Shown: piece by piece, positions 16,508 to 29,878 of the stretch
Layout: the number at the start of each line of letters is the position of its first letter
Position numbering within the stretch: the first letter of the stretch is position 1
Virus record (IMG/VR): IMGVR_UViG_2879742664_000009
Reading direction: 5' to 3' (one strand)
From: a virus
Lineage: Duplodnaviria; Heunggongvirae; Uroviricota; Caudoviricetes
DNA length: 40,938 bases
Program-made: the position numbers and the translations under genes
Notes under the pieces: generated by a model
Databases searched by the model: none
The model's input: the letters and a program-made list of their open reading frames with translations, nothing else
What the model was told of the DNA's origin: nothing

Positions 16508-17119
16508 TCACATATTATGTGCATCCAACAACTCAGGCCAGATGACATCCGGCGCGGTGCTGGTATCTGTTGCCGTCACCGCGTCAATGTAATCCAGCAC
16601 CGTGTTAAGTCGGCTGGTTTCTGCCTGCGTCAGATTCCGTCCGGCCTGTAATTTTAGTTGAATCAGATTGATGGAAGCCATTGCAGTATCAATCAGCGAC
16701 TGGCGTTGTGCTTCTGCTGCATCGACTGCGGCGCTATGTTGTGCCTCGGTATCCGTCACCCATTTCTCACCATCCCATTTATCGTATGGTGTTAACGGGA
16801 CGATAGTGGTTGTATTATCAGGGTAATCACCCGGAGCTGTGATTTCTTTTGATTCTCCTGTTTCGGTGCTAAAGACGATTTCACCGCGATGGTCTGGCAC
16901 ATATTCCCATGAGTTAAAATCTGCAGAACGGCAGATTGCATAACCAGCTTTGTATGCGCCTGGAGCATCTAAACAGGAATATGCCGGAATGCCGACACCA
17001 ATAGCAAGATATTCAGTTGAAGCTGAAATATACTCCCGACTCATGACATCAAAGTTATAAACAGTAATTTCTCCTGCCATAGTGGCAATTAATTCACTGT
17101 TTAATTCTGCGTTATTCAT
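16508..17119 (-). CDS. phage tail fiber assembly protein (Tfa)
   Basis: 203 aa; C-terminal ...TDTSTAPDVIWPE resembles Tfa chaperones; start overlaps the tail-fibre stop (ATGA). Confidence 0.7.
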   Translation of the reverse strand: MNNAELNSELIATMAGEITVYNFDVMSREYISASTEYLAIGVGIPAYSCLDAPGAYKAGYAICRSADFNSWEYVPDHRGEIVFSTETGESKEITAPGDYPDNTTTIVPLTPYDKWDGEKWVTDTEAQHSAAVDAAEAQRQSLIDTAMASINLIQLKLQAGRNLTQAETSRLNTVLDYIDAVTATDTSTAPDVIWPELLDAHNM

Positions 17120-17901
17120 TATGCAGCCCTCACAATATAGTTAAAAGCGACATTTCGTGGGCGTGTTTCATTCGCACCTGCAGGTTTAGTCGTTGCCGCA
17201 ACAACACCACCCTCTGTAATAGCCGGGTTGGGAATTGGGTAATTATCGAAGTCAATGGACGGAGACAGGGGCGTGATTTGTTTTAAAATCGTGGTGCCTG
17301 TAAAACTTTCCAGAGTCTGGTCGTTAGTTCGTGAAGTCCAGATTCCCCAATAGTGGTTATGACTGACAATAGCACCGTCCTGAAGCGTTAATAATCCCCT
17401 TCCGTTATCCACTCCACGCCCGTCATCCCAGCCCCGAATAAACTCACCGCGTAAATCAGGTAATTTATTTGTCGGATAAGCCTTTGCCAGTTCCGGGTAT
17501 TCTTCAGCAGAAAAAGCTGCTCCGTTGCATTTCAGCCAGCCTGTTGGCGGAGTGGCTGAAGGCCACGGAACAGGCACACCAACGGGTAATGCTGAGCCTT
17601 CTCCCAAACCAAGGTTTTCGAGAGCTGTTTTCACCGTGCCATCCGATTTGATATCGCCAAACGGATTCTTGCGGCTTAACAGCAGCGCACGAAGCGCGGT
17701 AAGCAGCTGGTCATGCCGCCCCTTCTCCAGGCTGGCACCGGATGCCTCCACAACGCTGCAAAGCTCCTCCTGCAACATGTCAAAGTAGTCATCATCCAGA
17801 TCGGTGGCAGGCGTGCCGGTCTGGGGGTTACCACGGGTAAAACCGTTCTTACCCGCGCCGAACTTATCCTTCTGCGCGGTTTTCGTGTCTATACGATGCA
17901 T
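17119..17901 (-). CDS. phage tail fiber protein (tail-collar domain)
   Basis: 260 aa; [38 protein letters not shown] is a phage tail-collar motif. Confidence 0.65.
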
Positions 17902-17904
17902 GGA

Positions 17905-18489
17905 TTACTCCGGATATTTAAAAATCACATAGGTATGCGACGGGCAGAGTTTGTTAAGAACACACTCGACAACGGTGTCCCCCCAGAAGCGCAGCGCGGA
18001 ATCACAGGGATCGCCACATGTCATCCAGGTGGTGTTGGTGGCGGCTGGCATGTTGACCTGCCAGTAATACCGCCATTCCGGCGCATTCACCGCGTCAGTA
18101 CAGGCAGATGAGCAGGTGAACGTGCTTTTGTCGTATCGCGTGATGGTGGCGTCTGGTCTGCCCAAGGCAGCAAGCTGTGCAAGGTAAAAATCCTCATTGA
18201 TGCCGCCCGCCAGGTTAACCTTCGCATCCAGCCGTTGCTGACGCTGGCGAAGGGTCTGCGTCCCTGCCGGAATACATTCATCCGGCAGGCCGCACAGACG
18301 CTCCCAGCGGTTTATCAGTTCGGTGGTGGTGCGCGGATCCAGCTCCTGCATCAGGGCATCCGCACGCTGATGAACACGGGTTAATGACGGTGCCGCACCG
18401 GCAATCGCCGGATCGCTGGCTGACCACGCCGGACCGGGCGGCAACAGTGCTGACAACAGACGGATGTAATCATCGTTTGTCACGTCCAT
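17905..18489 (-). CDS. Mu gp48-like baseplate/tail protein (DUF2313, YmfQ-like)
   Basis: 194 aa, family recalled from e14/Mu-like prophages; position between baseplate J and tail fibre. Confidence 0.55.
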
Positions 18490-19538
18490 GAAATCGCCCC
18501 CAGAACCGCCAGTTCATTTTTCGCAATGGTGATATTGTCCGCCGGTGCAAGCAACTGATGGCTGTATTCCCCGTTCGCACCGGAAATCGCTTCACTGATA
18601 CGTGACACCTTCAGTTCTCCCTGCGGATAACCATCACGCAGCAGGAACGAACGCAACTCCGCGGTGATGGCAGCCCGTATTTCCGGTGTGTCCGGCGTCA
18701 CACGGATATGAAAATCCACCGTATGTGCCACCGGCCTGAACACATACAAATCAGAGCCTGCCACCGGGGCCAGTGGCCCGATATGTTGTCTTGCCGCCGT
18801 TTCCGTTGATTCTTCCGGAATGGGATTAATCAGGTCACTGCTGGCAATCATCACACCGACAGTCCCCGTTCCCATCCAGTGTCGGTATGTCCATGCGCGG
18901 GTAATGCCAGGCACTTCTTTAGCCCAGACGACATAGTCCCCGTCAGCCCCGCCCTGCGGCGTCCAGTAATACCGCTCAATGACGCGGGCGCGCCACGTTT
19001 CCAGCTCTTCAGTATCAAATCCGCCTGTCAGGGTGTCAGCCACACCGGAAGACGGCAGACCATTCACCGGCGTGACCAGGATTAATGCCGTACCGTCGTC
19101 AGCGTTACCGACCGCACCTGCACTTGAGCAGGCGATCGGCACGCGCAGGACACCACCGGAGCTGATTGCATCGTCAGTTGTCGTGTACTGCACCAGGTCA
19201 TCGCGCTGAATAACACTCCCGGCAGTCACCTTCAGGCCATCGCTGACACCTTCCCAGCGCATATACCCGCTGGCAACCGTGGCCCCCTTGCGCGGACACC
19301 GTTTCATCGCAGCATGTCGCGCCAGCCAGGACTCATCGCACAGGTCAGGCAGCATATTCATTGCCAGATAATCGATGTAACCGTAGACCGTATGCAGCGC
19401 CGCCGCATACACCTTTGCCCGCACGTCTTCATCCATGCGCCGGAGCGTGTCGCTGACGTCCAGCCTGGCGAATAAATCGTTACGGAGCATACTGATATTT
19501 TCTGCCAGCGTCGGGCGCTGAAATTCACTGTCCGCCAT
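18480..19538 (-). CDS. baseplate J-like protein (Mu gp47-like)
   Basis: 352 aa; size and gene order in a Mu-like tail module. Confidence 0.65.
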
Positions 19539-19953
19539 GCGTTATCGCACTCCACAGATCATCAAAAGAAATCATTACTGGTCCATCACGACGCCTGAGG
19601 GTGATACTGTTACCCAGCTCATTAATCCCGGTGCGGCGGATATCCAGATCAATACGGGACACCACGCCGTCATCAGTCATCCATTGCAGGCATTCGCGGA
19701 TATATCCCCTTACCGTCTGCACCAGCTGATTGGTCAGTTTGCTGCGCTGAAGCAACCACAGTCGGGAGCCGTAACGGTCATTCTGTACCGCAGGCCAGGT
19801 ATCCCCCCACCATCCCATCGGGACGTCGGCATTGTCATCAGGCTCCGCCCGCCGCCAGGTGAACAGGGAAATCACCACGGCGCGGGTCAGCGGATCCAGC
19901 GGTGCGCTGGCGCAGGTGCGTTTACCGTTCACCGTCAGCCACAGTTCCATCAT
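19525..19953 (-). CDS. Mu gp46-like baseplate protein
   Basis: 142 aa; position and size. Confidence 0.55.
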   Translation of the reverse strand: MMELWLTVNGKRTCASAPLDPLTRAVVISLFTWRRAEPDDNADVPMGWWGDTWPAVQNDRYGSRLWLLQRSKLTNQLVQTVRGYIRECLQWMTDDGVVSRIDLDIRRTGINELGNSITLRRRDGPVMISFDDLWSAITHGGQ

Positions 19954-28672: not shown

Positions 28673-28992
28673 TGCGGAAAGTACCTGTACGGGCCGACAA
28701 GCCAGCCAAAACTCTGCGGCATGTCGAGTTTCTCCACTTCCGTAACCGACGAGCGGTTTTCGTAAAAATGGCTGATAAGCATCAGCATCCCCAGACGAAT
28801 ATCATCCGGCAGGTGCAGCCCGTCCGGATCGCTGTCCGGAATGGTTTCATCCGGTGCATAGAGCTTCCGGTTCAGATACGTTTCCGTCCGCTTTTGTGCC
28901 GCACAGGCCAGCAGTTGCAGATGGCGGTCATCAGCATCGAAATCCTCATCCAGCCGGAGTTGGGCTTTAATCTCTTCCATTGTCAGAAGCAT
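28669..28992 (-). CDS. phage gp6-like head-tail connector protein
   Basis: MLLTMEEIKAQLRLDEDFDADDRHLQLL... matches the Phage_connect_1 N-terminal pattern. Confidence 0.6.
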   Translation of the reverse strand: MLLTMEEIKAQLRLDEDFDADDRHLQLLACAAQKRTETYLNRKLYAPDETIPDSDPDGLHLPDDIRLGMLMLISHFYENRSSVTEVEKLDMPQSFGWLVGPYRYFPQ

Positions 28993-28994
28993 AC

Positions 28995-29195
28995 TCAGCC
29001 CTCTTTACTGGTCGTGGCTTTTTTCTCTTTTGTCGCTTTACTGCTTTTTGCACTGGTTCCGCGCTCTGCTAACCCGGCCTGAAGTGCAATCTCCTGCACC
29101 CGGGCAGGAAGCGCCCCGTCGTCATACTCACCGGCCCGAATGACCTCAACACGCATACCGTCCGGTGACCATTTCAGATCTTGTTTCAGGATCAT
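28995..29195 (-). CDS. hypothetical small phage head-region protein
   Basis: 66-aa ORF between capsid and connector, Lys/Ser-rich tail. Confidence 0.3.
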   Translation of the reverse strand: MILKQDLKWSPDGMRVEVIRAGEYDDGALPARVQEIALQAGLAERGTSAKSSKATKEKKATTSKEG

Positions 29196-29243
29196 GATTC
29201 TTCACCCGTCAGAACAGGGGCGCGGTTCCGCGCCCCTGAGTGA

Positions 29244-29878
29244 TTACGCCACTGCAATCTTCAGCAGTTTGATGGCCTGCGAATCGACCAGCATGCCGCC
29301 GGTGCGTTTGGTGGTATAAAAACCGACAAACGGTTTATTGGTGTACGGGTCACGCAGAATGCGGGTGCCGATACGGTCAACGATGGTGTAACCCCGTTTG
29401 AAGTTACCAAATGCAATGGCTTTCGCATCAGCGGCGATATCCGGCATCTGTTCGTTTTCAGCGATACCGTAACCCGCCAGAGAGGACGGCTGCCCCAGCT
29501 CCAGCCCCGGACGCCACAGATAGTTACCCTCGCTGTCTTTCAGCAGACGGATGGCAAACAGGCTATTGTTGTTCATCATGAACTTCGCGCCGGTGCGGTG
29601 TGCCTTACGCAGCGTGTAAATCAGTTTGATAATGGCGTCTGCGGTCACCGCCGTCGCGTCGCCGGATACAATATGCTGAAGTTTGCCGAACGCCCGGACC
29701 TTATCGGTTTCATCCGTGGATTCATTCGCCAGGAACCCTTTCGGCTTCTTGGTACCATCGCCGGTGGTAAAGGCAATTTCTTCCTGTTCGGCAAATTCGG
29801 TTGCCAGCTCGCTGTTGATCCATGCTTCCACGTTGAAAAAGGCATCATCCAGCATTTTCTGGGTGGCCTGCGGGTTAC
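29244..29878 (-). pseudogene. HK97-family major capsid protein, C-terminal fragment (5' truncated by IS629)
   Basis: Frame is open from the IS629 junction (…NPQATQKMLDDAFFNVEAWINSEL...) to the stop at 29244. Confidence 0.7.

Follow-up and report, generated by a model that had tools for sequence, protein, structure and literature searches.

The stretch of DNA analysed here, called the window throughout, is the 40,938-nucleotide (nt) IMG/VR virus record IMGVR_UViG_2879742664_000009. Positions 16508-29878, on the minus strand, hold a prophage remnant that is very probably the decayed structural (late) half of a temperate myovirus of the SfI/SfII/SfV family, now dead in Shigella flexneri serotype 6 and carrying the O-antigen acetylation gene oacC. 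The window matches accession CP026811.1 at 20,429 of 20,429 bases; this accession belongs to S. flexneri 64-5500, a strain of serotype 6 (PMC9455713; PMC10732043). By this match, the locus is assigned to the S. flexneri serotype 6 chromosome, either in strain 64-5500 or in an identical genome. The element has been known since 2014 (PMC4206707) and is an ordinary case. The phage genes present in the window are insufficient for capsid building, prohead maturation, DNA packaging or the assembly of a contractile sheath.

The structural genes form an unbroken string of open reading frames (ORFs) running from 29878 to 16508. Many stops and starts overlap, as at 17119, 18480-18489, 19525-19538, 20498, 21574-21577, 25209, 25565, 27781-27784 and 28669-28672. 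An earlier note, written from the letters alone, had described a tightly packed minus-strand late operon, and this layout bears it out. The edges of the span given there are the stop codon of tfa (16508) and the final capsid base, which abuts a copy of the insertion sequence (IS) IS629 (29878). Searches with Pfam and PHROG profiles agree on gene functions across the operon, from the capsid fragment to the tail fibre assembly protein Tfa. The order first read from the sequence (capsid, connector, sheath, tube, chaperone, tape measure, baseplate, fibre, Tfa) agrees with Pfam for every gene. The genes are as follows, with lengths in amino acids (aa) or base pairs (bp) where given.

16508..17119, minus strand: Tfa, tail fibre assembly (Caudo_TAP; 84.5% to e14 TfaE)
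17119..17901, minus strand: tail fibre, collar domain (Pfam Collar; 99.1% nt to Escherichia coli 40EC)
17905..18489, minus strand: Mu gp48-like baseplate wedge, YmfQ family (PF10076; Mu gp48 30%, e14 ymfQ 97%)
18480..19538, minus strand: Mu gp47/baseplate J (PF04865; Mu gp47 30% over 359 aa)
19525..19950, minus strand: Mu gp46-like (PF07409; Mu gp46 41%)
19950..20498, minus strand: Mu gp45/gpV spike (PF06890; Mu gp45 33%)
20498..21577, minus strand: Mu gp44/GpP baseplate hub (PF21683, PF22255, PF21929; Mu gp44 35% over 360 aa)
21574..22902, minus strand: Mu gp43-like 'DNA circularisation'/hub protein (PF07157, DNA_circ_N; Mu gp43 43% at the N-terminus)
22963..24798, minus strand: tape measure (PF10145; one synonymous difference from the intact 40EC prophage)
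24785..25209, minus strand: tail assembly chaperone with a predicted programmed -1 frameshift (PF10109, Phage_TAC_7; the -1 ORF matches phrog_32181, E 4e-40)
25209..25565, minus strand: tail tube (PF10618)
25565..27061, minus strand: tail sheath pseudogene, Q143amber at 26633-26635 (Pfam sheath; Mu gpL 36% over 500 aa)
27045..27215, minus strand: DUF2635, Mu gp38-like (PF10948; Mu gp38 42%)
27224..27784, minus strand: tail terminator, E181ochre at 27242-27244 (PF23840)
27781..28287, minus strand: tail completion/Neck1 (phrog_879, E 3e-95)
28262..28672, minus strand: head closure protein (PF05521, Phage_HCP)
28669..28992, minus strand: gp6-like head-tail adaptor (PF05135, Phage_connect_1)
28995..29195, minus strand: conserved 66-aa protein with no assigned function (100% to SfII_07; phrog_1020)
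29244..29878, minus strand: 3' fragment of the major capsid gene, nt 572-1206 of 1206 (Phage_capsid)

The capsid fragment covers only the C-terminal 195 of the 280 positions of the Phage_capsid profile (86-280). At the other end of the operon, the homology of tfa to the intact 40EC prophage stops at 16533, about 25 nt short of the stop codon; the terminal eight or so codons are new, and the product has 203 aa against 200. Pairs of chaperone products made by programmed -1 frameshifting are well known in long-tailed phages (E and E+E' in P2, G and GT in lambda). In the remnant, a slippery heptamer of canonical form, T_TTT_TTC, lies at 24958-24952, near the 3' end of an 89-aa ORF. The -1 frame then offers 55 open codons, reaching 24785, and its stop overlaps the tape-measure ATG at 24798. 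Slippage is predicted to yield a 141-aa fusion. The heptamer and the open frame bear out the frameshifted chaperone listed in the earlier note; it is a normal feature, predicted to be programmed, and no defect.

Real lesions are present elsewhere. The best E. coli relative of the module is found in strain 40EC (99.6% nt identity over 98% of the span), where it lies within a complete prophage that has HNH, terS, terL, ymfR, portal, HK97-family protease and 401-aa capsid genes. In all, 876 of 5,426 complete E. coli genomes carry at least 80% of the module. Lesions were read base by base against the intact 40EC copy. (i) The sheath gene differs from it at a single position in 1497 nt (1496/1497 identical). 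This change, CAG to TAG at codon 143 of 498 (26633-26635), is the amber codon that had been noticed from the sequence. (ii) In the tail terminator, GAA has become TAA at codon 181 (27242-27244), and the last six residues are lost. (iii) The capsid gene survives as two pieces: the minus strand has nt 572-1206 (29878-29244) and the plus strand nt 1-322 (38885-39206), while nt 323-571 (249 bp) are gone. (iv) The prohead protease gene retains only nt 207-651 (38426-38870, plus strand), which abut IS911; nt 1-206 are absent. Searches of the window with blastn and tblastn gave no match to HNH, terS, terL, ymfR or portal genes, so the absence of portal and terminase reported earlier holds for the window. 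The same searches found no homologue of SfII gtrA/B/II (gtrABC), int, xis, cI, Q, holin or endolysin. Genes for packaging, integration, immunity, replication and lysis are thus all absent from the window.

The rest of the tail is in much better condition. Nine genes compared base by base with 40EC carry 13 synonymous, four missense and two nonsense differences. The remaining seven of the compared genes (tape measure, gp43, gp44, gp46, gp48, Neck1/tail completion and fibre) account for 11 synonymous and four missense changes, the missense ones in gp46 and the fibre only. Another six genes of the tail show no difference from 40EC. Such preservation invites the idea of a domesticated contractile-tail weapon, an R-type tailocin or similar, in which the tail genes are under selection and the head debris is incidental. 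Fourteen of the 16 tail and baseplate genes are free of lesions, the differences from the intact phage copy are mostly synonymous, and the cluster occurs in very many serotype 6 assemblies. Contraction, however, depends on the sheath, which is cut at codon 143 of 498 in an allele that runs through the whole lineage. Neither a lysis cassette nor a late promoter or regulator is in the window, and 99.6% identity to a complete prophage with its head genes attached shows a recent phage origin. The synonymous bias is accounted for by the divergence of two phage lineages before inactivation. An R-type tailocin has a complete tail set without head genes and its own lysis and regulation; here the sheath is cut, head and adaptor genes are present, and lysis genes are absent. 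A tailocin is accordingly highly improbable, and the decayed late half of a phage is preferred.

The two displaced head fragments are explained by IS629. Five copies of this element, each of 1310 bp, lie at 4020-5329, 12949-14258, 29879-31188, 36105-37414 and 39207-40516; copy 1 is merely 98% identical to the other four. IS911, recognised through the copy annotated in the SfII record, is present twice (10962-12210 and 35863-38425). About a quarter of the window consists of IS sequence: the five IS629 and two IS911 copies, IS600 (9159-10315), a piece of IS630 and an IS66-like element in two parts (31189-31536 and 40517-40938). The features that bear on the head genes are the following.

12949..14258, plus strand: IS629 copy 2, left edge of the remnant (1310-bp repeat; ALIL frameshift pseudoknot)
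29879..31188, plus strand: IS629 copy 3, inversion partner (repeat comparison; the capsid fragment ends exactly there)
31189..39206, no strand: inverted segment between IS629 copies 3 and 5 (reconstructed junction)
35863..38425, plus strand: IS911 copy 2, split by IS629 copy 4 (36105-37414); cuts short the prohead protease gene
38426..38870, plus strand: 3' fragment of the HK97-family prohead protease gene, nt 207-651 (98.6% to SfII_05; 33% to HK97 gp4)
38885..39206, plus strand: 5' fragment of the major capsid gene, nt 1-322 (blastn and protein comparison)
39207..40516, minus strand: IS629 copy 5, second inversion partner (repeat comparison)

Copies 3 and 5 lie in inverted orientation. When the reverse complement of the sequence that starts at 31189 is joined to the sequence that starts at 40517, with a single AAC between them, the product matches uninterrupted E. 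coli IS66-like tnpA genes at 83 of 83 positions. It follows that an IS629 had inserted into the IS66-like tnpA with a 3-bp duplication, and that recombination between this copy and the capsid-borne copy inverted 31189-39206. Inversion of this 8-kilobase (kb) segment by IS629 x IS629 recombination is thereby proven. The segment holds the 5' part of the IS66-like tnpA, ykfJ-yafP-dinB, a remnant of another phage, IS911 with its nested IS629, and the protease and capsid fragments. With the inversion undone, the 3' part of the capsid gene is followed by IS629, then by the 5' part of that gene, the 3' part of the protease gene and lastly IS911. A capsid gene split by IS629, as the earlier note had it, thus fits the ancestral state; the halves are now on opposite strands, separated by 9 kb, and 249 bp have been lost.

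Related genomes supply an order for these events. A contig from the Logan assembly ERR5951538 (L005) has four mismatches to the window in 13.2 kb and carries both nonsense codons. It begins inside the same IS911 that flanks the protease fragment, yet its capsid gene is intact (401 aa, including the 249 bp lost here). Since the nonsense codons and IS911 accompany a whole capsid gene, they came earlier, and the IS629 insertion with its deletion and the inversion came later. In the same contig the gp48-like gene (12447-12911) is called at 154 aa against 194, and a separate lesion is thereby suggested for that strain. The IS629 nested in IS911 is absent from strain CCH060; this difference, together with one at a published primer site near oacC (oacC-4R, discussed below), shows that IS activity keeps varying between strains. 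Differences within the lineage amount to one to five per 11-19 kb.

The same comparisons bear on whether the lesions are sequencing or assembly artefacts in a prophage that is really intact and inducible. Single-base nonsense changes and IS-flanked breaks are typical of assembly errors. The exact 142-aa truncated sheath product, however, is indexed in 443 blocks of an assembly collection, and the places read proved to be separate NCBI, ENA and Logan assemblies. This spread shows the amber codon to be real and lineage-wide, and the terminator ochre codon is common to all amber-sheath contigs examined. In 369 of the 443 blocks the longest contig with the truncated sheath measures 10-20 kb, which fits the 15.6 kb that separate IS629 copies 2 and 3. 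Two other S. flexneri strains of serotype 6, CCH060 and CDC 796-83, both used in the 2014 study (PMC4206707), have the identical 203-aa capsid fragment among their annotated proteins. The map published there, made from different strains, has the same truncated module, and the inversion junction reconstructs perfectly. With capsid, protease and sheath broken and no lysis genes in the window, the remnant is not an inducible prophage, and artefact has next to no chance of being the explanation.

A composite transposon is a further alternative, in which the direct IS629 copies 2 and 3 would have brought oacC and the tail module together as an 18.2-kb unit. Two identical direct copies (12949-14258 and 29879-31188) do bracket the segment exactly. 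They are not accompanied by a target-site duplication, the outer flanks being ...CACTGG and GTTACC..., and the right flank of copy 3 is the IS66-like tnpA, brought there by the inversion. The intact, IS629-free capsid gene of L005 further shows that the prophage was already there when copy 3 arrived. Transposition as a unit is therefore exceedingly improbable.

The family to which this prophage belongs is clear from its closest relatives. Megablast against phage genomes gave 97.3-97.6% nt identity to SfI and SfII over 90% of the span. Identity to SfV is 96.8% over 82% of the span; this match is confined to the tail and stops at about 28785, in the connector region. Protein identity to SfII is 92-100% for each of the 19 genes, and the two share one gene order. 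Phages of the SfI/SfII/SfV family have myovirus morphology, HK97-family head proteins, kinship with e14, and integration at thrW beside proA (PMC3636060; PMC3851460). The module in the window has the composition of this type: HK97-family capsid and protease genes with adaptors, then a Mu-like tail through fibre and tfa, with an O-antigen modification gene (oacC) past tfa. Other features of the type, namely int/xis with a thrW attachment (att) site, and cos packaging (terS, terL) with a portal, are not found within the window.

The mosaic of an HK97-like head and a Mu-like tail, also claimed at the outset, is upheld by distant similarities. Eight proteins match Mu collinearly at 29-43%: those related to gp38 (42%), gp39 (the sheath, gpL; 36%), gp43 (43%), gp44 (35%), gp45 (33%), gp46 (41%), gp47 (30%) and gp48 (30%). 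For the tail tube, chaperone, tape measure and terminator, tblastn at E 1e-3 found no Mu match. The head fragments are 26% (capsid, gp5) and 33% (protease, gp4) identical to HK97. Relationship to the Mu tail (gp38-gp48) and the HK97 head (gp4, gp5, gp6) thus takes the form of shared Pfam families and collinear but distant homologues, and the module lacks the transposition genes of Mu. The genes retained by the e14 remnant are closer, at 93% for jayE, 97% for ymfQ, 97% for stfP and 84.5% for tfaE. The protein searches proposed earlier as a check, carried out with the window proteins against SfII, Mu, HK97 and e14, held in every comparison.

The earlier comparison with SfV and e14 needs one correction. 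The tail module, at 96.8%, and the e14 genes, at 84-97%, agree with it, and the same HK97-head, Mu-tail mosaic has been described for SfV (PMC3636060; PMC3851460). By sequence, the head genes are instead of the SfI/SfII/SfIV type: the 5' part of the adaptor gene, the 66-aa gene and the capsid gene are not of the SfV type. A head-gene difference from the SfV type has also been remarked for SfIV (PMC3851460). The remnant shares with SfI, SfII and SfIV 97% nt and 92-100% aa identity from capsid to baseplate, the gene order and the cargo slot after tfa. Those phages differ in being complete, inducible and thrW-integrating; they have terminase and portal genes, gtrABC, int/xis and genes for immunity and lysis, none of which is in the window. 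Their cargo is gtr (or oacD in SfII), whereas here it is oacC, and the tail fibre C-terminus and tfa diverge. The resemblance to e14 and e14-like elements extends over the whole module in the 40EC prophage. E14 of K-12 itself retains only the last baseplate and fibre genes with the pin invertible segment; in the window, the oacC island replaces pin and the second half of the invertible fibre segment.

The cargo gene lies outside the structural operon, preceded by IS remains.

15080..16228, plus strand: oacC, O-antigen 3/4-O-acetyltransferase, 382 aa, AT3 family (Acyl_transf_3; published primers)
14259..15079, plus strand: IS630-family fragment (DDE_3 ORF 14603-14866) and the region upstream of oacC (Pfam DDE_3)

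It sits in an island of 34% GC, convergent with tfa and 280 bp beyond the span first delimited. Deletion and complementation have established that oacC is responsible for 3/4-O-acetylation of rhamnose III (RhaIII) in the serotype 6 O-antigen (PMC4206707). It is the only gene of the element with an experimentally proven function, which was shown by others (PMC4206707). In that study's description, 19 phage ORFs with homology to SfII_6-SfII_23 come directly after oacC, and first IS630 and then IS629 lie upstream of it (PMC4206707, BMC Microbiol 2014;14:266). The element in the window is the same one: oacC is followed by tail genes, adaptors and one head-related ORF, and primer sites and amplicon sizes are shared. 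In silico, the published oacC primers give products of 350 bp (15184-15533), 1450 bp (14921-16370) and 3850 bp (15510-19359), equal to the reported sizes. Seven of the eight diagnostic primer sites match exactly; the oacC-4R site is absent from the window, and the upstream context of the window strain differs accordingly from the published one. The forward homology arm for the oacC knockout matches at 71 of 71 positions, and a 58-nt string tested for the reverse knockout primer had no match in the window. The exact OacC protein occurs in 309 contigs, whose sources call it an acyltransferase of S. flexneri or Enterobacteriaceae. The acyltransferase in the same slot of SfII, SfII_25, was considered as a homologue and rejected as unrelated (27% over 96 aa, E 0.045). 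Promoter-like sites around oacC were no more frequent than in shuffled sequence (9 against 9.5); terminators were also scanned, and no promoter is claimed.

The 2014 description was based on draft contigs, and the sheath amber, terminator ochre, displaced capsid and protease fragments and inversion were not reported in it (PMC4206707). New or corrected in the present account are the terminator nonsense codon, the capsid 5' and protease fragments displaced by inversion, the 249-bp loss and the SfI/SfII-type head genes.

The surroundings of the remnant are heavily rearranged. Chromosomal blocks at 1-920 and 5489-8763 (thiM with its TPP riboswitch, and apbC-metG) and at 31588-33583 (dinB-yafP-ykfJ) are about 2 Mb apart in K-12 and less than 25 kb apart here. 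Their juxtaposition indicates large IS-mediated rearrangements. At 32070-33583 (minus strand), dinB is followed by yafP with a 4-nt overlap, and the yafN-yafO toxin-antitoxin pair that intervenes in K-12 is absent. Two more tape-measure-like (TMP_3) genes, at 2758-4014 and 33630-35889 (both minus strand), share 28% identity with each other, and each is cut by or adjoins an IS element. The second stands with a Dit-like gene upstream of dinB, as in some E. coli. Both are remnants of other phage-like elements. At 10331-12948, a DUF4132 gene beside metG is interrupted by IS911, with a duplication of 3 bp (GGC), and cut short by IS629 copy 2; the context upstream of oacC is here unlike the published one of CCH060, in keeping with the absent oacC-4R site. 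The sole hits of an Rfam scan were the ALIL pseudoknots of IS629 and the TPP riboswitch of thiM, none of them in the phage module. The proximity of dinB-yafP-ykfJ raised the possibility that the remnant still lies at thrW, some 9 kb from ykfJ in K-12. The gene order with the inversion undone disagrees with a simple thrW lysogen.

The following course of events is very probable. (i) The ancestor was a phage of lambdoid genome plan with an HK97-type head and a Mu-type contractile tail, carrying oacC in the family's usual slot past tfa. (ii) Point nonsense mutations arose in the sheath and tail terminator genes, and IS911 cut the prohead protease gene. (iii) IS629 then entered the capsid gene, with the loss of 249 bp. 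(iv) Recombination of this copy with an inverted one flipped 8 kb, so that the 5' end of the capsid gene and the protease fragment came to lie 9 kb away. (v) The benefit left to the host is oacC, the gene for acetylation of rhamnose III in the O-antigen of serotype 6. On this account the tail genes appear to be recent, mostly intact passengers rather than a working machine, and their near-perfect state would reflect the recent death of the phage, not selection. The late operon appears to be without its upstream regulatory region and is probably silent.

Three points weigh against this reading. Searches covered the 41-kb window only, and given the extensive rearrangement, head, early and integration genes could survive elsewhere. 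Such survivors would not restore function, because the capsid, protease and sheath genes are broken. The original attachment site is not readable from the window, which contains no tRNA gene and no recognisable att site, every junction being an IS element. Substitutions within the lineage are too few to test selection on the tail genes, on whose neutrality the passenger status depends. Selection may be keeping the nearly lesion-free tube, tape-measure, baseplate and fibre genes in the serotype 6 lineage, whether for a tail-like particle that lacks a sheath, for a role at the surface or in receptor blocking, or to give oacC a transcriptional context. The two direct IS629 copies may, independently of this, act as an irreversible recombinational OFF switch for O-factor 9 acetylation. 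These suggestions are very unlikely to be correct, and decay of a dead SfI/SfII/SfV-type prophage is the favoured account.

The remnant is not a new kind of system, and much of what is added here is bookkeeping. The base-level account of the dismantling of the carrier phage nevertheless provides a clean case study of how IS elements drive the decay of a prophage in Shigella. The locus also explains how serotype 6, a target of Shigella vaccines, gained its O-acetylation gene.

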